Assembly: GCA_043809585.1 (NCBI GenBank)
Contig: JBDROZ010000121.1
Span: 1 to 36,372, forward strand
Length of the DNA: 36,372 bases
Source: Candidatus Eiseniibacteriota bacterium
GTDB lineage: Bacteria; Orphanbacterota; Orphanbacteria; Orphanbacterales; Orphanbacteraceae
Reading direction: 5' to 3'
Positions 2,966 through 35,929 of the stretch are shown here, piece after piece. Made by a program: the position numbers and the translations under genes. The stretch's first letter is position 1, and each line of letters opens with the position of its first letter. The notes under the pieces were generated by a model, which was not told where the DNA came from, did not search any database, and worked only from the letters and a program-made list of their open reading frames with translations.

Positions 2966-3254
2966 GGGGGGGAAGGCACCGGAGTGGGGGCCTCCCTAAG
3001 GCTCTGCAGTCATGAGGGTTGGCGGGTGGCCCTCCGGGTCCCCGATTTCACGATTCTCCTCGGGCCGACGCCGACTCCGTCCAGCGACACCGACCTGGAT
3101 TCGACACGCAAGTTGTGTTACACTTATGACTTGTACGGAACCTGTCTTTCACACATTTCAATTCCTGCCCGCAGGCCCTGCCGGGGTTCCCACCCCGCGC
3201 TCCCCCAGGGAAGTCTCCTCTCCGGGAGGCCCTCGGACAGAAAAGGGGAGCGTC

Positions 3255-5738
3255 ATGAGGAAACTGCTGATCGCGGCCGTGCTCTTTTCCGTCGTCTCCG
3301 GCGCCTTCGCGGCGAACGGAGGGGAGAGGGCGCTCGTCGCCGTCAATCATCCGGACCCGGGAACCACGGCCACCCTGCTCGATAGCGACGTGATGGTCGT
3401 CCGCGACATGGAGCGCTATCTGCTCGCCGCGGTCACGCCCGAGGAACTCGCGCGCCTGAACGACACGGGCGTCGTCTGGCGGGTCCTCGACGAGTCGATG
3501 ACGGGCAAGACGTACTACACCGTCACCCTCGGGCGCGAATCCCGTCTCGCGGAACTCGAGTTCCTCGTCCGAGTCCTCCGAGCGGACGCTTTCGACGCGG
3601 TGGTCGAGGCCTCGCCCGGCGAGATCGAGAAGGTCATGACCGCCGGGTTCGAGGTGGCCCGGGTCTTCGTCCGCCCGATCCGTCTCTCCAAGACCGCCGC
3701 GCCGGCTCGGGCCGGCAAGACGATGGTCGCCGATCCCCAGATCCAGGCGATGGTCAACGCCGTCTCGATCACCAATTACAACTCCTATGTGCAGCGGCTC
3801 CAGGACTTCGTGACCCGCCAGGCGAACACGGACAGCTGCCAGGCGGCGGCGAACTGGATCAAGGCGACGTACGAGTCCTTCGGCATCGACAGCGTGATGT
3901 TCCACAACTTCAGCAGCACCTACAAGGACAACGTGGTCGCCACGATCCCCGGCGTCGGCGACCCGAGCAAGATCATCCTGATCGGCGGGCATTACGACTC
4001 GTACACGGGGACCACGAACAACGCCCCCGGCGCGGACGACGACGCCACGGGGACCGCGTGCGCCCTCGAGTGCGCACGGATCCTCAGCCAGTACGAGTGG
4101 AACTACACGCTCGTCTTCATGGCCTTCGGCGGCGAGGAGTACGGGCTGTACGGCAGCGAGGGATACGCGAGCGACGCGGCGGCCCGGGGGGACGACATCG
4201 TGGCCGCCGTCTGCGTCGACATGATCGGTTACGTGGCGGGAGGCGACGCGATCGATCTCGACATCATCAGCAACACCGGTTCCCAGTGGATCCGGGCCGC
4301 CGTAGACGTCGCGGCGACGGACTACGTGCCGGCGCTCTCCGTCGTGACCGGCTCCCTTCCGGGAGGGGCGAGCAGCGATCACGCGTCGTTCTGGGCCCAC
4401 GGTTACGACGCGATCCTCTTCTTCGAGGACACGGGGAACTACAGCCCGTACATCCACACGACGAACGACGTGGTCGGCGTGAGCTACAACAACCCGACCC
4501 TGGCCGAGCGCTCCGTGAAGGCCGCCGTCGCCCTTCTCGCCACGCTGGCCGAGCCGTTCCAGATCGCCATCATCCACGACCCGCTGGCGGACACGGAAGA
4601 CACTTCGAACGACTACCGGGTCGCGGCGGAGATCGTCTCGGCGGAGGCCCTCGAGCCCGATTCGCTTCTCGTCCACTGGTCGAACGGCGGCGGTTGGAAC
4701 GAAATCGCCATGACCGCCACGGGCAACCCGGACGAGTACGAGGCGTTCATCCCGGCCCAGCCCGGCGGGACGTGGGTCGAGTACTACATCTCCGCGGGGG
4801 ACATAATCGGCAACCGCGCGACGGACCCGAAGGACGCCCCGCTGTCGACCCACACGTTCTTCGTGGGAGTCATCACCACGACCTGGTTCGACGATTTCGA
4901 GGCGAACCTCGGTTGGACCGTCGGGGACGCGGGCGACGACGCGACCACAGGCGTCTGGGAGCGGTGCAACCCCCAGGCGACGGACGCCCAGCCCGAGGAC
5001 GACCACACGCCGGCTCCCGGAGTGAACGCCTACATCACCCAGTGCGCGGCAGGCACGAGCATCGGTTCCTACGACGTGGACGGCGGAAAGACGACGCTCA
5101 TCAGCCCGAACATCGATCTTTCGGGCGAGACGAACGCCTACCTTCGCTACTGGCTCTGGTACGTGAACGACGCGGGCTCCGCGCCGGGGACGGACTACTG
5201 GTACGTCCGGGCGTCGGACGACGGCGGCCAGACGTGGGTCACCCTCGACTCGACATACAGCAGCACGCGGCCGTGGACGCTGGCGCAGCACGACCTGTCC
5301 CAGTACATCGCGCTGACGAATCAGGTGCGCTTCAAGTTCGTCGCGAGCGACGAGGGGGACGGTTCGATCGTCGAGGCGGGCGTCGACGACGTTGCGATCG
5401 TCAGCTATCAGAGCGGAATCTCCACCGGGATCGGCGAGAACGGCCCGGCGGCTTCGGCGCGGGTCGTGCTCGGCCCGAACGTGCCGAACCCGTTCAACCC
5501 GGTCACGGATATCCGTTTCGCCGTACCCGCGCCCGGACGGAAGGTGACGCTTAAAATCTACGATCTGTCCGGCCGTGAAGTGCGGACTCTGGTCGACGCG
5601 GAGAAGCTCTCCGGCGAGCGGAACGTCACGTGGAACGGTACGGACAACGCCGGCCACGATGTGGCGTCCGGGGTGTACTTCTACCGGCTCGAGGCGGGCG
5701 GGGAGAAGCTCGCGAAGAAGCTGCTGCTCGTGCGGTAG
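3255..5738 (+). CDS. Secreted M28-family metallo-aminopeptidase with Ig-like, MAM/jelly-roll-like and C-terminal FlgD-Ig (T9SS-CTD-like) domains
   Basis: Start moved to ATG3255 (SD AAGGGGAG, signal peptide MRKLLIAAVLFSVVSGAFA). M28 motifs GGHYDS, GADDDATG, GGEEYGLYGS, VDMIGY, SDHASFW and IHTTND. C-terminus NVPNPFNP...IYDLSGREVRTL...WNGTD...VASGVYFYRL. Confidence 0.9.
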   Translation: MRKLLIAAVLFSVVSGAFAANGGERALVAVNHPDPGTTATLLDSDVMVVRDMERYLLAAVTPEELARLNDTGVVWRVLDESMTGKTYYTVTLGRESRLAELEFLVRVLRADAFDAVVEASPGEIEKVMTAGFEVARVFVRPIRLSKTAAPARAGKTMVADPQIQAMVNAVSITNYNSYVQRLQDFVTRQANTDSCQAAANWIKATYESFGIDSVMFHNFSSTYKDNVVATIPGVGDPSKIILIGGHYDSYTGTTNNAPGADDDATGTACALECARILSQYEWNYTLVFMAFGGEEYGLYGSEGYASDAAARGDDIVAAVCVDMIGYVAGGDAIDLDIISNTGSQWIRAAVDVAATDYVPALSVVTGSLPGGASSDHASFWAHGYDAILFFEDTGNYSPYIHTTNDVVGVSYNNPTLAERSVKAAVALLATLAEPFQIAIIHDPLADTEDTSNDYRVAAEIVSAEALEPDSLLVHWSNGGGWNEIAMTATGNPDEYEAFIPAQPGGTWVEYYISAGDIIGNRATDPKDAPLSTHTFFVGVITTTWFDDFEANLGWTVGDAGDDATTGVWERCNPQATDAQPEDDHTPAPGVNAYITQCAAGTSIGSYDVDGGKTTLISPNIDLSGETNAYLRYWLWYVNDAGSAPGTDYWYVRASDDGGQTWVTLDSTYSSTRPWTLAQHDLSQYIALTNQVRFKFVASDEGDGSIVEAGVDDVAIVSYQSGISTGIGENGPAASARVVLGPNVPNPFNPVTDIRFAVPAPGRKVTLKIYDLSGREVRTLVDAEKLSGERNVTWNGTDNAGHDVASGVYFYRLEAGGEKLAKKLLLVR

Positions 5739-5762
5739 GTTTCGATCGATGAGTGCGCGACG

Positions 5763-5792
5763 GGGCGCCCGGTCCGGGCGCCCTTTCTCATT
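5763..5792 (+). terminator. Probable intrinsic terminator of the M28 gene
   Basis: GGGCGCCCG-gtc-CGGGCGCCC stem followed by TTTCTCATT, 24 nt after the stop codon. Confidence 0.55.
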
Positions 5793-5950
5793 GGAAATCC
5801 CTTTGGCCCCCCCGGCGTTCAACCGCTACATTCAGAGAAGAGCAGGGGAATCCCGGGTGCTCCCGGTGTGCGATCTCTCCGCCGTTCCCGCGGCGCATGT
5901 CTTCATCTCGGCTTCCCTGATCCCGCGAACCTCCGAGGAAAGGAACCGGC

Positions 5951-6379
5951 ATGGCTGAGGCGAAGAGCGGCGACAAGGTCCGCGTCCATTACACGGGGAA
6001 GCTGAGCGACGGCACGGTCTTCGATACCTCCGCCGAGGGGGACCCCCTCGAGTTCACCCTCGGGAAGGATTCGGTGATTCCCGGATTCGAGAACGCCGTG
6101 AGCGGCATGGCCCCGGGAGAGAGGAAGACCGCCCGGATCCCGTGCGATGACGCCTACGGCCCGCGGCGGGACGAGCTGACCCTCGAAGTGAACCGGAGCG
6201 AGTTCCCGGAAGGGGCGGATCTGAACGTGGGGCAAAGGGTGCGGGTGACCCAGCCCGGAGGCGACACCTTTCTCGTCACCGTCGCCCGGGTCGGCGAGGC
6301 GGACGTGATGCTCGACGCGAACCACCCCCTGGCGGGCGAGGACCTCGTTTTCGACATCGAGCTCGTCGAAATCGTCTAA
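5951..6379 (+). CDS. slyD: FKBP-type peptidyl-prolyl isomerase, SlyD/SlpA-like, without His-rich tail
   Basis: GDKVRVHYTGKLSDGTVFDTS, VIPGFENAVSGM, DAYG and LDANHPLAGEDLVFDIELV. SD GAGGAAAGGA. Confidence 0.85.
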   Translation: MAEAKSGDKVRVHYTGKLSDGTVFDTSAEGDPLEFTLGKDSVIPGFENAVSGMAPGERKTARIPCDDAYGPRRDELTLEVNRSEFPEGADLNVGQRVRVTQPGGDTFLVTVARVGEADVMLDANHPLAGEDLVFDIELVEIV

Positions 6380-6415
6380 GCTCGGAAGGGCTCCGGAGAC
6401 CGAGAGAAGATCCGG

Positions 6416-6444
6416 TAGCATTTTCCAACTCTTCGTGATATACT
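6416..6444 (+). promoter_or_regulatory. Candidate sigma70 extended -10 promoter of the cys leader/cysKE operon
   Basis: TG-a-TATACT at 6436-6444 in an AT-rich patch. Weak -35 (TAGCAT, 6416-6421) at 17-bp spacing. Confidence 0.6.
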
Positions 6445-6479
6445 TAGCTCACGAATCCACCCGTTTGGAGAGGACTGAA

Positions 6480-6560
6480 ATGGACCGCCGAACCTGTTGT
6501 TGCTGTCGCGACAAATCCCGGAAGGGGGCAGGGCCTCGGCGTATCCGTATCCGCGTTTAG
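6480..6560 (+). CDS. Cys-rich leader peptide (MDRRTCCCCRDKSRKGAGPRRIRIRV, 26 aa)
   Basis: SD GGAGAGGA (6467-6474), ATG6480, TGT TGT TGC TGT at 6495-6506, TAG at 6558-6560. Lies immediately upstream of a terminator and cysK. Confidence 0.85.
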   Translation: MDRRTCCCCRDKSRKGAGPRRIRIRV

Positions 6561-6600
6561 TCGCGTAGAGAAGACGGAATGACTCGAGCCCGCGGCCCCC
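6486..6600 (+). promoter_or_regulatory. Attenuator protector and antiterminator helices
   Basis: Protector: CGCCGA(6486-91) with TCGGCG(6536-41), and CCTG(6493-96) with CAGG(6529-32). Antiterminator: GGGGGC(6524-29) with GCCCCC(6595-6600), GGGC-c-TCG(6531-38) with CGAGCCC(6585-91), and TCCGT(6544-48) with ACGGA(6574-78). Confidence 0.75.
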
Positions 6601-6619
6601 GCCGCGGGCTTTTTCGTTT
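6586..6619 (+). terminator. Attenuator intrinsic terminator upstream of cysK
   Basis: Perfect 10-bp stem AGCCCGCGGC-cccc-GCCGCGGGCT followed by TTTTCGTTT, about 60 nt before the cysK start. Confidence 0.9.
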
Positions 6620-6678
6620 CCATTCCGAAAACAGGGCGCGATGCGCCGCCGACCTTCCTCCCGGAGAAGGAGAACAGC

Positions 6679-7647
6679 ATGGGACGGATCTTTAAAGACA
6701 TCACGGAAGCGGTGGGCCGCACGCCGCTCATCGAGCTTTCCCGGTTCGCGGGGGGCGGGGCCCGCGTCCTCGGCAAGGCGGAGTTCTGCAACCCCCTGTC
6801 GAGCGTGAAGGACAGGATCGGCGTGCACATGGTGAACCGGGCCGAAAAGGACGGCCGCATCCGGCCGGGGAAGACGGTGCTGGTGGAGCCGACGAGCGGC
6901 AACACCGGCATTTCCCTCGCCTTCGTCGCGGCCGCCAAGGGCTATCGCCTGATCCTGACCATGCCCGAGACCATGACTGTGGAGCGGCGGAACATGCTCC
7001 GCGCCCTCGGCGCGGAACTGGTGCTGACGCCCGGCGAGAAGGGCATGCCCGGGGCCATCGCCCGGGCGACGGAGATCGCGGAGAGCACGCCGAACGCGGT
7101 GGTCCTGCAACAATTCGAGAATCCCGCGAACCCGGAGATTCACCGGTTCACGACGGCGGAGGAGATCTGGGATGACACGGAGGGGGGCGCCGACATTCTC
7201 GTCGCCGGTGTCGGAACGGGCGGGACCATCACGGGGGTCAGCCAGTTCTTCAAACCCCGGAAGCCGGAGTTTCGGGCGATCGCGGTGGAGCCGGTCGACT
7301 CGCCGGTCCTCTCCGGCGGCTCGCCGGGGCCCCACAAGATCCAGGGGATCGGCGCCGGTTTCATTCCGGGAATCCTGGAGATGGACCGGATCGACGAGAT
7401 CATTCAGGTGACCTTCGAGGAGGCCGTGGCGGCGGCGCGCCGGCTCGCGCGGACCGAGGGGATCCTCGCCGGGATCTCGACCGGGGCGAATGTTCACGCG
7501 GCGCGGGAGGTCGCCCTCCGGCCGGAGAACGAGGGGAAGACGATCGTGACCATCCTCTGCGACACGGGAGAGCGCTATCTGTCGACGGTGCTCTTCGCCC
7601 CGGAAGAGTCGGAAAAGAAAGCGGAGGTGGGCCATGGAAAGCGCTAG
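6679..7647 (+). CDS. cysK: Cysteine synthase A (O-acetylserine sulfhydrylase)
   Basis: PLP-lysine motif [48 protein letters not shown] and [17 protein letters not shown]. Confidence 0.97.
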
Positions 7648-8371
7648 CGTTCGGGCGGCGGCCCGAGCCCGGGGAGGGGACGCCCTCGCCGGAGCGAGGC
7701 CCTTGGGTGTCGTGGCACGGGTGCGCGAAGACATCCGGACCGTCTTCGACCGGGACCCGGCGGCTCGGAGCGTCCTCGAAGTGATCTTCTGCTACCCCGG
7801 GTTTCACGCGATGCTCCTGCACCGCGCGGCCCACGGGCTCTGGCGGCGGCGGTTCTACTTCCTCGCCCGGTGGCTCAGCCACGTCAACCGGGCCCTCACG
7901 GGCATCGAGATCCATCCGGGGGCGACCATCGGCCGGCGGTTCTTCATCGACCACGGCATGGGCGTCGTGATCGGCGAGACCACGGAGATCGGGGAGGACG
8001 TCACGCTTTATCAGGGGGTGACCCTCGGCGGGACCAGCCTCGAGAAGAAGAAACGGCACCCGACCCTCGGCAACGGCGTGATCGTCGGCGCGGGGGCGAA
8101 AGTGCTCGGCGCGCTCACCGTGGGGGTCGGGGCGCGGGTCGGCGCCGGCGCGGTGGTGGTGAAGGACGTGCCGGCCGGCGCGACGGTGGTCGGCCTCGCG
8201 GGCCGCATCGTGGGCTCCGGACGGCGGGGCGAGAAGCGGGAACTGAAGCTCGACCTCACCGAGAGCCGGGGGGACCACGACGTGCGTGTGGGCGAGGTGC
8301 TTCTCGAGCGGGAGGAGAGACCCGAGAACCCGCCGAACGGGCAGGCCCCGGAGGATGAATACGGATCCTGA
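7634..8371 (+). CDS. cysE: Serine O-acetyltransferase
   Basis: [55 protein letters not shown] and KRHPTLG. Overlaps cysK by 14 bp; the exact start is uncertain. Confidence 0.95.
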
Positions 8372-8556
8372 GCGTCTTCGCGAATCGCCCCTCCTCGGAA
8401 GGAGGGGGGGCGATCCCGGAGGGGCGACCACGGTTTTCCCCGGGTGCCGGCCGGGGCGCGACGCTCCCCCCGCGCCCCGGCCCGGCCGCAAATGGACCGG
8501 CATCCCCTCCCGCTTCCTGATAATCTGACGGGGTCGTTCACCGGAAGGAGCGGGCG

Positions 8557-9609
8557 TTGATCCGGGCCGAACCATCCATGGGAAGGAAGATCCTCTTCGG
8601 CGCCGCCGTCACGGTTCTCTTCTTCGGAATCCTCGAGGGAGGGGCCCGCTTGTTCGTTCCTCCCGGCGACCCGATCCTGTACGAGACCCACCGGAACATC
8701 ATCACCATCCTCGGCCTTCCCGAGATGAACGACATCATGGATTACGATCCCCGTCTCTTCTGGACCTTGAAGCGGGGCCTTCCGGGGAAGCGGATCGTCG
8801 GGTCGATCACGGGGGAGCCCATGGATTTCACGGTCTCGACGAACCGTCTCGGGCTTCGGGGACCCGAGGTCGGAGAGAAGCGGGGCTTCCGGGTGCTCGC
8901 GATCGGCAACTCGTGCACCTTCGGAATGGGGGTGCAGGACGGCGAAACCTGGCCCGCCCGGCTCGAAGCGATCCTCCAGGAGCGGACGGGGACGGAAGCG
9001 GAGGTGATCAACGCGGGCGTACCCGGCTACACATCCTTCCAGGGCCTTCGGTACCTGGAAGAGCGGGGGCTCGACCTCGAGCCGGACCTGGTCATCGCCT
9101 GCTTCGGGTTCAACGACTCCGACCCGTGGGGGCCGGACGGGGACGAGGCGATCGCCGGGAACCTCCGGGGGCGCTCATTGGACCGGGCCCTCTCCCGGTC
9201 CCGCTTCTACCGGGGGCTCGCCGGCCTGATCCGGAGGGGGGCCGGGGAAGAGGGGGGGGGCGGCGGTGTCGGGCCCCCCGAGGCGCGTCGCCCCCGGGTA
9301 TCGGCGGACGAACTCCGCCGGAACCTGCTGGGCATGAAGGCGATCTGTGAAGAGCGCGCGTCTTCGGTGATGTTCCTCCTCTGGCCGTACCGCAAGCAGA
9401 GGCTGGAGAAGATCCGGGATCCGGTCGTCTTCCAGCCCATCATCGTCCGGGCGGGGCAGGAAGCGGGGGCGCCCGTCATCGACCTGGTCGGCCCGTTCGT
9501 CGACGCCGGCGAGCCGGTCTTCCTCGACCACATCCACGCCACGCCGGCCGGGTGCAATCTCGTGGGTGAGACGATCGCAGACGCACTGGACCGTGCCCGG
9601 GCCCACTGA
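8557..9609 (+). CDS. SGNH/GDSL-family hydrolase with N-terminal membrane anchor
   Basis: Block I AIGNSCTFG, block II EVINAGVPGY, block III FGFND, block V LDHIH. TTG8557 has SD AAGGAG; ATG8578 is an alternative start. Confidence 0.85.
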   Translation: MIRAEPSMGRKILFGAAVTVLFFGILEGGARLFVPPGDPILYETHRNIITILGLPEMNDIMDYDPRLFWTLKRGLPGKRIVGSITGEPMDFTVSTNRLGLRGPEVGEKRGFRVLAIGNSCTFGMGVQDGETWPARLEAILQERTGTEAEVINAGVPGYTSFQGLRYLEERGLDLEPDLVIACFGFNDSDPWGPDGDEAIAGNLRGRSLDRALSRSRFYRGLAGLIRRGAGEEGGGGGVGPPEARRPRVSADELRRNLLGMKAICEERASSVMFLLWPYRKQRLEKIRDPVVFQPIIVRAGQEAGAPVIDLVGPFVDAGEPVFLDHIHATPAGCNLVGETIADALDRARAH

Positions 9610-9826: not shown

Positions 9827-11822
9827 CCCAAGTTCCGCAGTTCGGGGGGTGGTTTTGAGGTTTTTCAACGACTTACGGGGTCGAGTCGGCACTACATTTT
9901 GGAGATTCCGGGAGGCGTGCGGAGTCGTTGGGGGAGGCGGAGCCCGAGGCGATCGAGGAGCAGGGCTTGGGCTTTGTCGGGCCGAACGACGCAGCGGAGG
10001 CGCATTTCTCGTCTCGATCCATCGGCGAGAGGAAGGATGACATCCGTGCTCTGGATCCGGCTGAGCTCTCGGAGGATGGTTCGGGGGCTGCTGCCGAGGC
10101 CCGCTTGGCGCTGCCACTGTTCGAGCGTTTTCCAGAGGACATAGGCGAGGAAGCAGACCAGGATGTGGGCCTGGACCCGATCGGGTCTCTGGTGCCAGAT
10201 GGGGCGGAGGGAGAGGTCGCTCTTCTGGATCCGGAAGGCGGCTTCGGCTTCGGTGAGTTGGATGTATGTTTGCCAGAGAGTCTCGGGAGTCCAGTCGGCG
10301 ATGTTTGTTCGCAGAACGTAGCAGCCTTCGCTCCAACGAGCCCAGTCGTTCCACTCGGGTCGTGCGGACCAGGAGAGACGAAGCTTCGAGATCTGCGTAG
10401 TGTCTTGGAGCAGGCGGATCGTGTAGCGGCCGGCGGCGCGGGAGTTCCGCTCGAGGAGGCGGCCGATCTGTCGTTCGATCGCTCCTCGATCGAGAGGGGA
10501 GCGGGCGTGTTCGATGCGTCGGGCGAGCGAGGCGAGACCGGCTTCGATGCGAGCGGCGAACCGTTCATGCATCGCCTTTTCCTTTTCCCGGCGCTCGGCG
10601 GAGCGACAGAGGAGGAACGTCTCTTTCCCGCCCGGTCCGGCACAGAGCTTCACCTCGATCCCCTCGCGGACCGTCTTCCAGTCGGTCGCTGCGGCGATTT
10701 CCCGGCTCCACTTCTTGACGTCGCCTCGATGCGTCCCGAGGAGGTACCGCCGCCCGGTCTCTTGGAGCCACGCGAGGTTCTCCGCGCTCATCATCCCGCG
10801 GTCCATCACCCAGATTCGATCGGCAAGACCGTAGCGGGCTTCCATCGTCTCCACGATCTCCTCGACTGTGGTGACATCGACCCGGTTGCCGGGAAAGACC
10901 TCGTAGCCAAGAGGCACCCCCTCGCGTGTCACGACCAGAGCGATGCAGACTTGCTTGCAGTCCGGCCGATGGTCGCGACTGTAGCCGCGTTGGGCGAGAG
11001 GATTCCGAGCGGCGAGTCCTTCGAAGTAGGTGCTCGTGACATCGTAGAGCAGAAGGTCGTAGTCGAGGGCGAAGAGCTCGCCGAGGCGACGCACGAGATG
11101 CCGCTCGATCGCGGCCTTGTGGGGAAGCAGACGATCGAGAGCGCGATAGAGTCGATCGACGTTCACGCTCTCGCTCGGGAGTCCGAGCAGATCTTCCAGC
11201 GCTGTTGCGCGATACCAGCTCTCGGCGATGTGGAGCTCGCTGGAGGGTTCACAGAGCCGAGCGACTACCAACACGGCCGCCAGAAGAGACCAGGCGTACT
11301 CCTCGCGCCCTTCGGGCAAGAACTCTTCGCACGCCTCCTCCAATCGAAGAGCCCGCCAGAGAGTCCAACCGAGCCAGACATCCCCAAAGGATCGGCCGCG
11401 CTCGAGGCGCACTCGGTTCAGTTGAACCGGAACCGCGGTCGCGTCGCAGCAGAGGTCCTCGAAGAGCCCGTGTTGGCTCGCTCGTCCGACCATCGCGCGC
11501 GCCAGAGCCCTCGCCTTCGCACGCCCCTCAGCGTCCAACTCCCCGAGCTGCGCGACCGTCTCCTGCACCACTTTCCCGTTCCGACGAACGGATCGCACCA
11601 GACGCCAGTACGTGTGCGTCTTCCCATCCTTGCGACGAACCGTGTGCCGAAGGTACATCTCTCTCCCTCGTCACTCCGGTATCGCAGATCAAAACCGCTC
11701 AGGCAAGGGGGTAGGTCGGCACTACATGGCCCTCCGCGCCCACCCAGCACGCAAGGACACACACTTATACCGTCCCCCTCCTCGAAAAAAACCGCGAGAG
11801 GCACGAAACTGCGGAAGTCAGG
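9827..11822 (-). mobile_element. IS1634-family insertion sequence
   Basis: Imperfect TIRs CCCAAGTTCCGCAGTT (9827-9842) and AACTGCGGAAGTCAGG (11807-11822), 13/16 matches, bracket a DDE transposase. No target duplication is visible. Confidence 0.88.
9892..11658 (-). CDS. IS1634-family DDE transposase
   Basis: N-terminus [34 protein letters not shown]. Catalytic motifs [30 protein letters not shown] and Y..L..AEAAFR..KSDL.LRPIWH...RV.AHI.VCFLAY. Confidence 0.93.
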
Positions 11823-27063: not shown

Positions 27064-28038
27064 TCAGCGAAGGCCCATCGCGCGGCGTACGCCGTCCATG
27101 GTCTCCGCCGCGATTCCCCGGCAGCGCTCCGCCCCCTCCGCGAGCGGGGCCCGGACCTCGTCCGGGTGGTCCAGGAGGTGGTGATAGCGCTCCCGGATCG
27201 GCTCGAGCTCCGCGAGCATCCGATCGCCGAGCTTCTTCTTGCAGTCCACGCAGCCGATGCCAGCCCGCCGGCATTCGACGTCGATCATCTCCACGTCTTC
27301 GGCGGGGGAGAAACTCTTGTGGAGGGTGAATATGTTGCAGATGTCCGGATTCCCCGGATCGTTCCGTCGCTTCCGGTTCTCGTCGGTGAGCGCCGTGGCG
27401 AGTTTCTTCCGGATCGACTCGGGCTCCTCCACGAGGCCGATGTAGTTGTTCATCGACTTCGACATCTTCGTCTTGCCGTCGAGGCCCATGATGCGCGGCG
27501 TCGGCGAGAGGAGCGCCTGGGGCTCGGGGAAGACCTCGCCGAACCGGGCGTTGAACTTCCGCGCCACTTCCCGGGAGAGCTCGATGTGCTGCACCTGGTC
27601 TTCGCCGACCGGCACCTTGTCCGCCTTGTACAGGAGGATGTCCGCCGACTGGAGCACGGGGTAGTCGAAAAGACCGACGTTGATGTTCTCCGGGTGCCGC
27701 CTCGATTTTTCCTTGAACTGCGTCATCCGCCCGAGGTCGCCCATGGACGTTACCGTGTTGAAGTACCAGGTCAGTTCCGTGTGCTCCGGCACGAGGGACT
27801 GAACGAAAAGAACGCACTTCCTCGGGTCGAGCCCGGCCGCGATGTTCGCCGCCGCCGCCTCGAATATCCGGCGCTGCAAACGGTCCGCCTCGTACTCCAC
27901 GGTGATGGCGTGCTGGTCGACGATGCAGAAGATCGACTCGTGATCTTTCAGGAGCTTTACCCAGTTCCGGATCGCTCCCAGGTAATTGCCGATGGTGATC
28001 TCGCCGCTCGGCTGGATTCCGCTGAAGATGCGACTCAA
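27064..28038 (-). CDS. trpS: Tryptophanyl-tRNA synthetase
   Basis: IFSGIQPSGEITIGNY (HIGH-like TIGN), YPVLQSADILLY, VPVGEDQ.QH.E and KMSKS. TTG28038 has GGAGG 8 nt upstream; ATG28080 is an alternative start. Confidence 0.96.
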   Translation of the reverse strand: MSRIFSGIQPSGEITIGNYLGAIRNWVKLLKDHESIFCIVDQHAITVEYEADRLQRRIFEAAAANIAAGLDPRKCVLFVQSLVPEHTELTWYFNTVTSMGDLGRMTQFKEKSRRHPENINVGLFDYPVLQSADILLYKADKVPVGEDQVQHIELSREVARKFNARFGEVFPEPQALLSPTPRIMGLDGKTKMSKSMNNYIGLVEEPESIRKKLATALTDENRKRRNDPGNPDICNIFTLHKSFSPAEDVEMIDVECRRAGIGCVDCKKKLGDRMLAELEPIRERYHHLLDHPDEVRAPLAEGAERCRGIAAETMDGVRRAMGLR

Positions 28039-28101
28039 GGCCAATGCCTCCCTCTTGCGCCCGCCCCCCGAGCGGGGCATTGGAACTTTAGACGCCGCAA
28101 T

Positions 28102-31851: not shown

Positions 31852-32937
31852 ATGTCCGAGCTCAGGCACGACCCGATCCAGAGGCGCTGGATCATCATCG
31901 CCACGGACCGTGCGCAGCGACCGGACAGTTTCGCCGTGGAGCCGGAGCGCGTGATCCAAGGCGCCTTCTGCCCGTTCTGCGAGGGGAGCGAGGAATCGAC
32001 GCCTCCCGAGATCGTGGCGATCCGCGACCGCGGGTCGCGGCCCAACACGCCGGGCTGGAAGATCCGCGTGGTGCCGAACAAGTTCCCCGCCCTCCGGATC
32101 GAAGGGGTGCTCAAACGCCAGGGGATCGGCATCTACGACCGCGTGAACGGCATCGGGGCCCACGAGGTTTGCATCGAGAGCCCCGACCACCTGAAATCCC
32201 TCACCGATTTCGACGTCGAGCACGGCGGCGGGATCTACCGGATCCTTCAGGAACGGCTCATGGACCTCCACCGGGACGGGCGTTTCCGGTACGTCCTGCT
32301 CTTCAAGAATCACGGCGCCGTGGCGGGGGCCTCCCTGCCCCATCCCCATCATCAGGTGATCGCCGTCCCGGTCACGCCGAAGACGGTCAGCACCGAGCTC
32401 CAGTCGGCCCGCGACTACTATCTCGACAAGGAGCGCTGCATTTTCTGCGACATGATCCACCAGGAAATCGAGACGGGCGAGAGGATCGTGGCGCTGACGG
32501 AGGATTACGTCGCCTTCTGCCCCTACGCGAGCCGGTTCCCCTTCGAGATCTTCGTCGCCCCCCGGGAGCACGAGCACTCTTTCGCCGAGACGGCGCCGAA
32601 AGGGCTCGCGGGACTCGCGGAGATCATGAAAGACGTTCTCGGCCGCCTCCGGGTCGGCCTGAACAACCCGCCCTTCAACTACATGTTCCACTCGACGCCG
32701 AATACGGAGATGAAGCCCCGGCGGCCCGGCTACTGGGCGACGGTGAAGTACGATTACCACTGGCACATCGAGATTCTGCCCCGGCTCACCCGGGTGGCGG
32801 GATTCGAGTGGGGAACCGGGTTCTACATCAATCCCGTTCCCCCCGAGCAGGCGGCCGCTCATCTCCGGAGTGTCGACCCGGCCCTGGCCCCCTCCGGGCC
32901 CGCCCCCGCCCTTGATGGAGCGGGGGATTCCGAGTAG
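31852..32937 (+). CDS. galT: Galactose-1-phosphate uridylyltransferase (GalT family)
   Basis: MSELRHDP...W.IIATDRAQRP, CPFC, VVPNKFPAL, GAHEV..ESPDH, FKNHG..AGASLPHPHHQ, CIFC and AGFEWGTG. SD AAGGAG. Confidence 0.9.
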   Translation: MSELRHDPIQRRWIIIATDRAQRPDSFAVEPERVIQGAFCPFCEGSEESTPPEIVAIRDRGSRPNTPGWKIRVVPNKFPALRIEGVLKRQGIGIYDRVNGIGAHEVCIESPDHLKSLTDFDVEHGGGIYRILQERLMDLHRDGRFRYVLLFKNHGAVAGASLPHPHHQVIAVPVTPKTVSTELQSARDYYLDKERCIFCDMIHQEIETGERIVALTEDYVAFCPYASRFPFEIFVAPREHEHSFAETAPKGLAGLAEIMKDVLGRLRVGLNNPPFNYMFHSTPNTEMKPRRPGYWATVKYDYHWHIEILPRLTRVAGFEWGTGFYINPVPPEQAAAHLRSVDPALAPSGPAPALDGAGDSE

Positions 32938-32947
32938 ATTCGAATCC

Positions 32948-35929
32948 ATGGAGGTTCATCAATTGCGAAGGACGAAGCGTCTCCCCCTGCCGCTCCCGCG
33001 CCAAGGGGGTTTCTTCTTCCTTCTGGCGATGACCATGGCCATGACGGCCGCTTCGCCGGCCCTCGCCAAGCGCGGCGTAGGTCAGGGCCCCGCCGTGGAG
33101 AGGAACATTCCCCGGGCGGAGCGGCTCCTCGCGGCCGAGCGCGCGGGGGAATGGACGGTCCGGCGGGACGGCACGAGCGGGCGGGTGAGCCGGGTGGAGC
33201 CCGCGACGGCGCGCGCCGGCGCGGCGAAGGGGGAATCCCCCGCGGAGCGTACCTTGGGCTTCGCCCGGGAGCTCGCCCCCCTTCTCGGGATCGAGGGGGT
33301 CCTCGACGAGCTCGAAGTGGCGTTCGTGAGACGGGGTCTCGCGAGCGAGCACGTCGTCCTCCGGCGCGTCGCGGGAGGAGTCCCCGTCGAACCGGGTCGC
33401 CTGGGCGCGCATTTCGACAAGAGCGGGCGGCTCCTCTACGCCGACGTCACTCTCGACCCCCGCCCGGTCTCCGCGTCGAAGAGCGCGGCCGTGGCGGCGT
33501 CCGCGGCGGAGGCGATCGCGGCGGAGGGGCTCGTTCCGGGCGGTGAGGCCCGGACCGAGCTCGTCTGGAGGGAGACCGGGGAGGGAATCCGGCTCGCTTG
33601 GAGAGTCGATGTTTCCTCCGAGGAGCCCGCGGGGCTCTGGACCTCTTTCGTCGACGCGTCGTCGGGCGAGATTCTGGAACGGGCGAACCGTTCCCCCCAC
33701 GCGACGGGGAGCGGCCGGGTCTGGACGCCGAACCCGGTGAACGTCCTCGAGACGACGAACCTCTCGGACATGAACGACACGGATCAGGGGGTCTTCGATC
33801 CGGCCTACCGGATCGTGACGCTCCAGGGGCTCTCCGAGTCGGGGGCGCCCGCCCAGTACCGGCTCGAGGGCCCGTACGTGGAGATCGTCGACTTCGAGAC
33901 GCCCACCGTTCCGCCCCCCGTCGCGGGGAACCCCGACGGCTTCCGTTTCTACCGGGCCGACGACCGTTTCGAGGCGGTGATGGCCTACTATCACATCGAC
34001 GAGTGCCAGCGCTACCTCCGGGACCTCGGTTTCGACGGAGTTGCCGCTGACTCGATCGTCGTCTCGCCGATTCCGGTCGACGTCCACGGCTTCCAGGGGC
34101 AGGACAACTCCCGGTACGATCCCTTCCCGCTCCACCGGCTCTCTTTCGGCGACGGCTGCGTCGACGACGCGGAGGAAGCGGACGTGCTGATCCACGAGTA
34201 CGGCCACGCCATCGAGTTCGGCCAGGCGCCCGACTGGGGATACCCCGGCGGTTACATGGGGGCCATGGCGGAAGGGTTCTCCGACTACTGGTCCGAGTCC
34301 CACGCCGCCCGGCGGGGGGTGACCTTCGACCTCGGCCAGGTCTTCGATTGGGACCGGGGCCCCGTGGATTTTTGCTGGCTCGGCCGGCGGGTCGACAACG
34401 CCAAGACCATGGACGATCTCCGGCCCCTCACGTCGGGCAACATCTACGACAACAGCCAGATCTGGTCCGGCTCCCTCTGGGACCTCCACGGCGCGGTCGG
34501 CGGGCCGTACGCGGACAGCCTGATCCTCGAGTCCCACTTCTACTACAACGGCGCCGCGCCGAGCGTGTCCTTCGCCGACGGCGCCTTCGCGATCATTGAG
34601 GCGGACCGGACCTTCACGGGGGGCGCCCACGGCGAGGAGATCTTCAACGTGTTCAAGGCGCGGGGCGTGCTCACGGGGGACGACACCAGCGAGCCGACGA
34701 TCCTCTCCGGGAGTCATCCGCCGTTTCTCTTCGCGGGGGAGGTGTTTCTCTGCAGCCTGACTCTCCGTTCGGAGGTGCCGATCCGAGCAGTGGAGATCGT
34801 CTACGGCGTGACGGAGGCGGCGGGGGACACGGCGGATCTCGCCACCGGGGGCGATTCCCTTTGGGTCGGGTCGGTGACGCCCCCTCCGGAGTCCGATTCG
34901 CTTCTCTATTCCTACATGGTGACGGACCTTTTCGACCGGACCGTCCTCCTGCCCGATCCGGGAAGGTTCCTGAGCGTCATCGTCGCGGACGTCCAGGCCC
35001 CGAACATCACCCACGCTCCGGCGGCGGACGCGCTCGACAGCGCCCTGCCCGTCCCCCTCTCGGTGACGGCGACGGACAACTCGGCGGTCGACCCCGATTC
35101 GGTGATCGTCTACTGGAGTTTCGACGGAGCCGCGGGGAGCGACTCGGGAGATTTCGCCCTCTCCGCCGGCGCGGGGGACTCGGTCTTCACGGGTCCGTTC
35201 CCGGAGGGGCCGGGCCGGATCGGAACGTACGAGTACCGGATCCTCGCCGTCGACGTCTCCGCCGCGCGGAATCGATCCTATGAGCCGCCCTCGGGCTTCC
35301 ACTCCTTCTCGGTGTTCGCCGACACGACCGCGCCGGCCCTCACGCACACGCCCCTCCCGGACGTGAAGGAGGGGGAGGGCCTTCCCGAGGTCCGGACGAC
35401 GATCACCGACGACGGCGCCCTCGATGGGGACTCTCTCTACGTCGAGTACCTCTTCACCGGAGCGGAGGGGGGGGAAGGCGCCGGGAAAATGACCCTCGCA
35501 GCCCGGGGGGACGACGAATACGCCGCGACCTTCCCCGAGTTCTCCGAGGAGATCGGTTCGGTGGAGTACAGGATCGTCGCCGTCGACGCCGCCCTCGCGG
35601 CGAACCGGACGGTGAGCCCGGCGGCCGGGTATCACGAGTTCGAGATCTACCCCTCTTCGGTCCGTCTCGCCCTCCGGGGACCGAACCCGTTCGCCGAGCG
35701 GGTCGCCTTCACTCTGTACCTCTCGAAGGACGCGAACGTCCTCTTCGAGATCTACGATCTCGCCGGGCGCCGGATCCACGGCGAAGAAGTCGCCCTCACC
35801 CGGGGCGCGGGCCACTTCGAATGGAACGGGAGAAACAGCGATGATCGACGGGTCGCGCCGGGCATCTACCTCTACCGGGTCGCCGCGGACGGGTACGAGA
35901 AGACGGGTCGTATCGTCCATCTACGTTAG
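32948..35929 (+). CDS. Secreted M36/M4 (fungalysin/thermolysin-like) zinc metalloprotease with FTP/PepSY propeptide, Ig-like repeats and FlgD-Ig C-terminus
   Basis: Signal peptide ending ASPALA, FVDASSGEIL (PepSY), AYYHID, DVLIHEYGHAI (HEXXH), AMAEGFSDY and GPNPF...IYDLAGRRI...WNGRN...VAPGIYLYRV. Start is ATG32948 or TTG32963 (GGAGG 8 nt upstream). Confidence 0.85.
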   Translation: MEVHQLRRTKRLPLPLPRQGGFFFLLAMTMAMTAASPALAKRGVGQGPAVERNIPRAERLLAAERAGEWTVRRDGTSGRVSRVEPATARAGAAKGESPAERTLGFARELAPLLGIEGVLDELEVAFVRRGLASEHVVLRRVAGGVPVEPGRLGAHFDKSGRLLYADVTLDPRPVSASKSAAVAASAAEAIAAEGLVPGGEARTELVWRETGEGIRLAWRVDVSSEEPAGLWTSFVDASSGEILERANRSPHATGSGRVWTPNPVNVLETTNLSDMNDTDQGVFDPAYRIVTLQGLSESGAPAQYRLEGPYVEIVDFETPTVPPPVAGNPDGFRFYRADDRFEAVMAYYHIDECQRYLRDLGFDGVAADSIVVSPIPVDVHGFQGQDNSRYDPFPLHRLSFGDGCVDDAEEADVLIHEYGHAIEFGQAPDWGYPGGYMGAMAEGFSDYWSESHAARRGVTFDLGQVFDWDRGPVDFCWLGRRVDNAKTMDDLRPLTSGNIYDNSQIWSGSLWDLHGAVGGPYADSLILESHFYYNGAAPSVSFADGAFAIIEADRTFTGGAHGEEIFNVFKARGVLTGDDTSEPTILSGSHPPFLFAGEVFLCSLTLRSEVPIRAVEIVYGVTEAAGDTADLATGGDSLWVGSVTPPPESDSLLYSYMVTDLFDRTVLLPDPGRFLSVIVADVQAPNITHAPAADALDSALPVPLSVTATDNSAVDPDSVIVYWSFDGAAGSDSGDFALSAGAGDSVFTGPFPEGPGRIGTYEYRILAVDVSAARNRSYEPPSGFHSFSVFADTTAPALTHTPLPDVKEGEGLPEVRTTITDDGALDGDSLYVEYLFTGAEGGEGAGKMTLAARGDDEYAATFPEFSEEIGSVEYRIVAVDAALAANRTVSPAAGYHEFEIYPSSVRLALRGPNPFAERVAFTLYLSKDANVLFEIYDLAGRRIHGEEVALTRGAGHFEWNGRNSDDRRVAPGIYLYRVAADGYEKTGRIVHLR

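Follow-up and report, generated by a model that had tools for sequence, protein, structure and literature searches.

A probable terminator-based attenuator with a run of cysteine codons precedes cysK-cysE on a Candidatus Eiseniibacteriota contig

The enterobacterial leaders trpL, hisL, leuL, thrL, pheL and ilvL combine a promoter and a short open reading frame (sORF), led by a Shine-Dalgarno sequence and carrying a run of codons for the end product, with mutually exclusive 1:2, 2:3 and 3:4 helices and a G+C-rich, U-tract terminator in front of the first biosynthetic gene. To our knowledge, cysteine is not among the amino acids sensed by these leaders. Consecutive cysteine (Cys) codons are a feature of actinobacterial leaders: there, genes of cysteine metabolism are preceded by a short ORF with such a run, and a ribosome stalled on it is believed, or has been shown, to lift repression. 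In Seliverstov et al. 2005 (PMC1262725), the Cys run of these ORFs is placed beside the stop codon and the leaders are said to have "no obvious terminators". The Cys leader of Mycobacterium smegmatis is described in Canestrari et al. 2020 (10.1101/834739) as leaderless and as unmasking a downstream ribosome-binding site, and the mycobacterial Cys leader is also cited as translation attenuation in PMC13236596. Here we analyzed a 36,372-nucleotide (nt) stretch of DNA from a Candidatus Eiseniibacteriota bacterium (assembly GCA_043809585.1, contig JBDROZ010000121.1, positions 1 to 36,372; hereafter the window), in which an sORF with four consecutive Cys codons and an intrinsic terminator precede the cysteine-synthesis genes cysK and cysE. 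Judged from its sequence, this cys leader probably attenuates transcription of cysK-cysE at the terminator, by a ribosome-mediated mechanism that responds to charged tRNA-Cys.

The leader lies in the 299-nt gap (6380-6678) between a slyD-like gene and cysK. Within this gap, an extended -10 element, a Shine-Dalgarno sequence, the Cys sORF and the terminator follow one another, and cysK-cysE come next:

6436-6444, + strand: putative extended -10 element TGATATACT, read from the sequence
6467-6474, + strand: Shine-Dalgarno sequence of the leader sORF, GGAGAGGA, 5 nt upstream of the ATG at 6480
6480-6560, + strand: leader sORF MDRRTCCCCRDKSRKGAGPRRIRIRV, 26 codons plus TAG (6558-6560)
6495-6506, + strand: proposed regulatory codons TGT TGT TGC TGT, codons 6-9 of the sORF
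6480-6497, + strand: segment 1, the upstream strand of the 1:2 protector hairpin; it spans the sORF ATG and Cys codon 1 of the run
6524-6548, + strand: segment 2, the alternative partner of segment 1 or segment 3
6574-6600, + strand: segment 3, the antiterminator partner of segment 2; the terminator's 5' arm and its loop lie within it
6586-6619, + strand: predicted intrinsic terminator; stem 6586-6611 with 11 pairs (9 G-C), a 4-nt loop and a T-rich tail
6679-7647, + strand: cysK, O-acetylserine sulfhydrylase A, the proposed first regulated gene (TIGR01139 score 437.2 bits, cut-off 350.95; Pfam PALP)
7634-8371, + strand: cysE, serine O-acetyltransferase (TIGR01172, 244.8 bits against a cut-off of 210.65)
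5951-6379: slyD-like FKBP isomerase gene (Pfam FKBP_C)

Five hallmarks of a classical leader-peptide attenuator were found here, all in silico: an sORF with its own ribosome-binding site, codons of the pathway's amino acid, an intrinsic terminator, mutually exclusive helices and a computed dependence on ribosome position. The match of codons to pathway is direct, with four Cys codons immediately upstream of two cysteine-synthesis genes, both of which score above their NCBIfam equivalog cut-offs. The two genes share 14 nt at their junction and are therefore presumably co-transcribed, and the ATG of cysK at 6679 is preceded by a GGAG-rich Shine-Dalgarno sequence resembling that of the sORF. The -10 element, the Shine-Dalgarno sequence, the sORF, the Cys codons and cysK-cysE were all read from the sequence where the first-pass annotation, made from the sequence alone, had put them. 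Its terminator was right in position and in having a U-tract, but the stem is 11 bp long rather than 10. The annotation had also remarked on the use of TGT for Cys in a host that favors TGC, and the counts given next agree.

The run CCCC is the only run of at least four Cys residues in the window (six frames, 72,740 codon positions). For comparison we used 80 cysK loci from many phyla, with 58-69% CysK identity, taken from among the matches listed in a contig search. They contain eight runs of at least four Cys in 1,020,560 codon positions, two of which are actinobacterial Cys leaders. From the resulting rate of about 6 spurious runs per million positions, about 0.002 CCCC runs would be expected on this strand of the 299-nt gap. 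Three of the four Cys codons in the sORF are TGT, compared with 6 TGT against 73 TGC in the 16 Pfam-backed genes of the window (binomial P = 0.0017). The peptide that follows the Cys run is rich in Arg and Gly, and the sORF stops 118 nt upstream of cysK. A longer, GTG-started form of 41 amino acids (aa) would begin within the putative promoter. A search of 5.8 billion protein clusters with this 41-aa form gave no homologue and no candidate with three shared 5-residue words, a result that says little, since ORFs this short are rarely annotated. We also observed a 16-nt inverted repeat, 81% complementary, that joins 6507-6522, just past the Cys codons, to 6550-6565, around the sORF stop.

The terminator hairpin folds at -23.3 kcal/mol, with its 5' arm at 6586-6596, its loop at 6597-6600 and its 3' arm (segment 4) at 6601-6611. 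The stem is not followed by a T-run on the reverse strand, and the terminator should thus act on the + strand only. When a strong terminator was defined as having at least 10 pairs with 9 G-C pairs, the window held two, this one and another at 5762-5784. The latter lies 24 nt after the M28 peptidase gene, which indicates that the organism uses such signals. The terminator at 6586, for its part, begins 207 nt downstream of the slyD stop. It is flanked by a 7-bp inverted repeat (6575-6581 and 6621-6627) that could lengthen its base in read-through transcripts.

Transcription of cysK appears to have to pass this terminator. The region from the terminator to cysK (6612-6678) lacks any TA dinucleotide and hence any TAnnnT -10 element, and the two TAnnnT hexamers of the intergenic region 6380-6678 both lie upstream of the sORF. 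Barring an unrecognised promoter type, polymerase must therefore cross the terminator to reach cysK-cysE, which argues for a conditional terminator. The upstream candidate TGATATACT has a perfect TGn extension and matches the -10 hexamer at five of six positions; it ends 35 nt upstream of the sORF ATG, and from its position transcription would start near 6451-6453. The G+C content of 6405-6480 is 45%, compared with about 64-72% for the genome (~67%). The putative -10 element and start are bracketed by a perfect 7-bp inverted repeat, TTCGTGA/TCACGAA (6432-6438 and 6449-6455, spacing 10 nt). On its sequence this repeat could be an operator for a dimeric repressor and so a second layer of control; by a rough estimate, about 0.4 repeats of this size are expected by chance in such a region.

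We computed RNA folds with ViennaRNA. The free leader folds as a 1:2 hairpin plus the terminator. In the minimum-free-energy folds, the 1:2 pairs are 6480-6484/6544-6548, 6486-6491/6536-6541 and 6493-6497/6528-6532, and the hairpin (6477-6551) has an energy of -32.1 kcal/mol that was matched by 16 of 1000 shuffles. With 6483-6515 masked, segment 2 pairs with segment 3 instead (6524-6529/6595-6600, 6531-6534/6588-6591 and 6536-6538/6585-6587, with further pairs at 6540-6542/6579-6581 and 6544-6548/6574-6578). This 2:3 antiterminator is a long imperfect helix into which the terminator's entire 5' arm and its loop are drawn; the region 6520-6600 folds at -37.5 kcal/mol, and under the same mask the antiterminator stays the minimum-free-energy fold even when the RNA extends to 6611. 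The stop codon of the sORF is located in the apical part of the antiterminator helix. A ribosome placed at the stop covers part of the region with which segment 2 would pair, and in the corresponding fold segment 1 pairs again with segment 2 and the terminator forms.

We then followed the fold of the full-length RNA (6452-6611) as a function of ribosome position. The terminator is part of the minimum-free-energy fold without a ribosome and at 24 of 26 A-site positions, and the two positions at which the antiterminator replaces it are the first two Cys codons. As a measure of energy we took, for each A-site position, the energy with the terminator enforced minus the energy with its 3' arm unavailable. 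This terminator gain is -12.5 kcal/mol without a ribosome, drops to -4.7 to -6.6 kcal/mol on the four Cys codons and is -6 to -10 kcal/mol on the few codons flanking the run. From an A-site at 6513, two codons past the last Cys, to 6552, it rises to -15 to -21 kcal/mol; it is -12.0 at 6555 and -15.5 at the stop. The boundary was stable over three footprint sizes, with a single outlier: the smallest footprint gave -13.2 kcal/mol on the fourth Cys codon. The profile thus marks the Cys run as the last positions at which a paused ribosome leaves segment 2 free. In shuffling controls, the whole leader fold had a z score of -2.4 and was equalled by 3 of 200 shuffles. When 6507-6585 was shuffled and the rest was kept, the terminator was retained in the free state in 397 of 400 sequences, and a switch at one or more Cys positions occurred in 13 of 400. 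In 6 of 400 the switch extended to at least two Cys positions, which is what the real leader shows.

As a positive control, the same scripts were run on the Escherichia coli trp leader. In its full-length fold, the antiterminator appeared at 0 of 15 positions, and the energy shift at the Trp codons was only from -13.7 to -11.9 kcal/mol, far weaker than that in the cys leader. The cys leader thus passes the equilibrium tests more clearly than the trpL archetype does, and the weaker signal of the latter indicates that these tests are conservative. The computed ribosome-position logic of the two leaders agrees. Several claims of the first-pass annotation could be judged from these calculations. 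The three pairings it had drawn by eye were recovered, the 2:3 helix extending further than drawn, to 6544-6548/6574-6578; folding with and without the ribosome-covered stretch masked gave the antiterminator and the 1:2 hairpin plus terminator, respectively; and the weakened terminator gain on the Cys codons agrees with its proposal that a ribosome stalled there would leave segment 2 free. Its central suggestion, a terminator-based attenuator sensing Cys-tRNA, is supported by the in silico checks that we ran. Its remark that known Cys leaders are leaderless and terminator-less agrees with what PMC1262725 and 10.1101/834739 say.

The sequence of events that we propose is as follows. Transcription would start at about 6451 from the extended -10 promoter, and a ribosome would begin translating the 26-codon sORF from its Shine-Dalgarno sequence and ATG. 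With plentiful Cys-tRNA, this ribosome would translate across segment 2 and reach the stop codon (6558-6560); segment 2 would then be either occupied by the ribosome or paired again with segment 1, the terminator would form, and transcription would end about 60 nt upstream of cysK. If the sORF were not translated, the 1:2 hairpin would form as well, again with termination as the result. With scarce Cys-tRNA, the ribosome would stall on the Cys codons (6495-6506) and cover segment 1, and the free segment 2 (6524-6548) would pair with segment 3 (6574-6600) as polymerase releases the latter. This 2:3 pairing would keep the terminator from forming by sequestering its 5' arm and its loop, and polymerase would read into cysK-cysE. 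The analysis itself shows the sequence elements, how they are ordered, how rare they are, and the alternative folds with their computed energies. We infer the promoter, the transcription start, the translation of the sORF, the stalling, the termination and the response to cysteine.

The cys leader shares with the enterobacterial leaders the layout described at the outset, and departs from trpL-type leaders in the reach of its sORF, which continues across segment 2 and ends within the apical part of the antiterminator helix. Its alignments to Rfam leader families stayed far below threshold, with 16.9 bits against 41 for Trp_leader (RF00513) and 15.2 bits against 55 for Thr_leader (RF00506), and the three alignments shown rest mainly on the terminator hairpin, the conserved columns of Trp_leader included. 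It resembles the actinobacterial poly-Cys leaders in placing a short ORF with Cys codons in a row before genes of cysteine metabolism, and in the proposed logic of relief by stalling. Unlike the leaderless actinobacterial ORFs, it has a Shine-Dalgarno sequence and, as read from the sequence, a candidate -10 element 35 nt before the ATG; unlike them too, it carries the Cys run at codons 6-9 of 26 and has a strong terminator after it. CysB, the Rrf2-family regulator CymR and Cys T-box or S-box leaders act on the same targets (cysK, cysE) in response to sulfur or cysteine. These systems depend on binding by a protein or by tRNA or another ligand; Rfam gave no T-box or S-adenosylmethionine (SAM) riboswitch match in the cys leader, and the gene directly upstream of cysK in the window is not of Rrf2 type but the slyD-like FKBP gene. 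The literature that we searched, which did not extend to the attenuator survey of Lopatovskaya et al. 2010 (a source that could bear on novelty), contained no terminator-based Cys attenuator. Cysteine occurs in the reference list only of Naville & Gautheret 2010 (PMC2965389), is not mentioned in PMC4833913, and has no counterpart among the eight leader peptides of the Streptomyces lividans reannotation (PMC8079986).

Among the 80 comparison loci, one true poly-Cys run lies upstream of cysK, in a locus of Ca. Mycobacterium methanotrophicum (L073); that of an uncultured actinomycete (L076) lies about 1.4 kb upstream and probably leads another gene of the operon. The two sORFs are related to each other, and neither peptide shows similarity to that of the cys leader:

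2578-2697 of L073 (Ca. Mycobacterium methanotrophicum): leader sORF with 9 Cys codons directly before the stop
1394-1555 of L076 (uncultured actinomycete): leader sORF with 5 Cys codons directly before the stop

A scan of the 400 nt before the L073 cysK gave no hairpin with a T-run. When the 450 nt upstream of cysK were searched for at least three Cys in six residues, there were 20 hits on the gene strand and 15 on the reverse complement, no real excess. An sORF with a start codon and the dipeptide CC was present in 10 of the 80 loci, and in two of these (L038 and L071) there is also a weak hairpin, at -11.8 to -13.8 kcal/mol, followed by a T-run; three consecutive Cys occur in neither. A further candidate, a triple-Cys stretch located 159 nt before cysK in Methylopila (L042), was dropped, as its frame has no start codon. 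In this locus and in a second alphaproteobacterial one (L033), the gene about 170-480 nt upstream of cysK is presumably an Rrf2-type regulator, and an AT-rich stretch separates it from cysK; control there would be solved differently, by a protein encoded where the window has none. As for gene content, cysE was found in 10 of the 80 loci, seven of which have it no more than about 1.4 kb past cysK, and the synteny search detected slyD-like, GDSL or M28 proteins near cysK in none of these listed matches. Closer relatives appeared as proteins, with a CysK of 89% identity (P0002) and about 60 clusters at 73-79%, one of them named Candidatus Eisenbacteria; that no such relative is among the 80 loci may reflect how far the contig listing extended. 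Looking for N-terminal over-extension in 12 CysK proteins was uninformative: the longer ones are extended at the C terminus, and only P0035 at the N terminus (by 20 aa).

A number of results weigh against a terminator-based Cys attenuator. The evidence is a single locus, and the leader architecture was seen in none of the 80 listed cysK loci (at most 69% CysK identity). In Rfam, the region 6300-6750 gave nine matches at E ≤ 10, most of them aligned on the terminator hairpin. All fell well short of their gathering scores, the best having 17 bits against 49.5. The energy of the antiterminator alone was matched by 83 of 1000 shuffles, which is not unusual at this G+C content, and the combination of that energy with at least 12 paired segment-3 bases by 31 of 1000; by these counts, the structural evidence is moderate on its own. 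Truncated transcripts are a second structural difficulty. In RNA that ends at 6595-6605, no ribosome is needed for the antiterminator to be the minimum-free-energy fold, and for RNA ending at 6600, 4 to 8 of the 11 bases of the terminator 5' arm pair upstream in all 27 states, so that the truncated-RNA test gives no discrimination here. The same test on trpL singles out exactly the Trp, Trp and Arg positions, unlike in the cys leader. On these equilibrium folds, discrimination in the cys leader would have to rest on the kinetics of folding, for example on persistence of the 1:2 hairpin. For the promoter, a consensus scan of 5800-8800 found no full sigma70 -35/-10 match, so that it stays putative, and the motif TGnTAnnnT occurs 10 times on both strands of the window against about 18 expected from base composition by a rough estimate, and so is not enriched. 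Finally, slyD has no other terminator downstream, and the terminator at 6586 could also end slyD transcripts.

This last point enters into two other explanations of the locus. The Cys-run sORF may be a real cysteine sensor that acts differently, as in mycobacteria, through attenuation of translation, Rho-dependent termination or the stability of the mRNA, with the terminator constitutive, leaky and there mainly for the slyD-like gene. That account, which we regard as unlikely, fits the absence of a further terminator after slyD and the unexceptional energy of the antiterminator, and it can appeal to the only experimentally studied poly-Cys leaders, which act translationally according to 10.1101/834739. 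Yet the energy profile shifts sharply right past the Cys run and concerns the terminator itself, and direct coupling is improbable with the sORF stop 118 nt before cysK. The 5' region of cysK (6612-6700) also folds in an ordinary way (z = +0.75; 150 of 200 shuffles as good), with the cysK Shine-Dalgarno sequence touched only by a weak 5-bp stem; translational masking of that sequence is accordingly not supported. The whole arrangement may alternatively be a coincidence, in which the terminator belongs to slyD, the cysK transcripts arise by read-through or from a promoter that escaped recognition, and CCCC is a chance product of G+C-rich DNA in a frame that is not translated. A single locus, a promoter known from a sequence match, 6 spurious CCCC runs in about a million codon positions of the comparison loci and the ease with which alternative helices arise in G+C-rich RNA all leave room for chance, but we hold it to be quite improbable given how much would have to coincide: the Cys run (about 0.002), its TGT codons (P = 0.0017) and the switch (6-13 of 400 shuffles), together with an in-frame Shine-Dalgarno sequence and ATG directly before two cysteine-synthesis genes. 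Nor is there a -10-like element past the terminator, and its distance from the slyD stop (207 nt) compares with 24 nt between the other strong terminator and its gene.

A last alternative makes the Cys codons incidental, the leader being either an RNA that binds a ligand or protein (a riboswitch, a T-box or the target of an RNA-binding protein) or the message for a functional Cys-rich micropeptide. T-boxes and S-boxes do serve cysteine and methionine genes elsewhere, and a UGU/UGC repeat could in principle be a binding site for a protein, but no Rfam family reached its gathering score. A micropeptide is at odds with the lack of a homologue of the 41-aa form among the clusters searched, and the Arg/Gly-rich part after the Cys run is what would be expected where RNA pairing constrains the sequence. 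We consider this alternative very improbable. A terminator-based attenuator responding to charged tRNA-Cys is thus the reading that we prefer.

The window most likely comes from the uncultured phylum Candidatus Eisenbacteria, to judge from the CysK relatives and from its TrpRS gene (27064-28080), whose best three named matches, at 79, 77 and 76% identity, all belong there. Beyond cysE follows a gene for a GDSL-type hydrolase, and about 0.3 kb downstream of it a DDE transposase of 588 aa (Pfam DDE_Tnp_1) is encoded on the - strand at 9892-11658, which places an insertion sequence near the cys locus. At the start of the window, adjacent and overlapping genes on the + strand (55-879 and 867-1793) encode DUF1670 proteins with a helix-turn-helix domain. 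An FlgD Ig-like domain ends two large proteins, encoded at 3012-5738 and at 32870-35929 (both + strand), one of the two being the M28 peptidase. C-terminal FlgD Ig-like domains are common in FCB-group candidate phyla, in agreement with an origin in Candidatus Eisenbacteria.

As far as we found, the documented terminator-based leaders are those for Trp, His, Leu, Thr, Phe and Ile/Val, and not Cys; for Cys codons, sensing is known to us from mycobacteria alone, where the device is leaderless and works on translation. Since attenuation itself is already a textbook mechanism, the conceptual advance would be modest. The locus illustrates that metagenome contigs can reveal the logic of cis-regulation even for lineages without a cultured member, and, if our reading is true, this is a compact element of about 170 nt that would lend itself to tests in a heterologous host or a coupled in vitro system. 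Cysteine would then join the amino acids sensed by Shine-Dalgarno-led, terminator-based attenuators, and Cys-codon sensing would have been invented convergently in an unrelated, uncultured phylum. We see about an even chance that the leader is the first classical intrinsic-terminator Cys leader-peptide attenuator, that it arose in Candidatus Eisenbacteria independently of the actinobacterial sORFs, and that it is perhaps the phylum's main control of cysK-cysE, replacing proteins of the CysB/CymR type.

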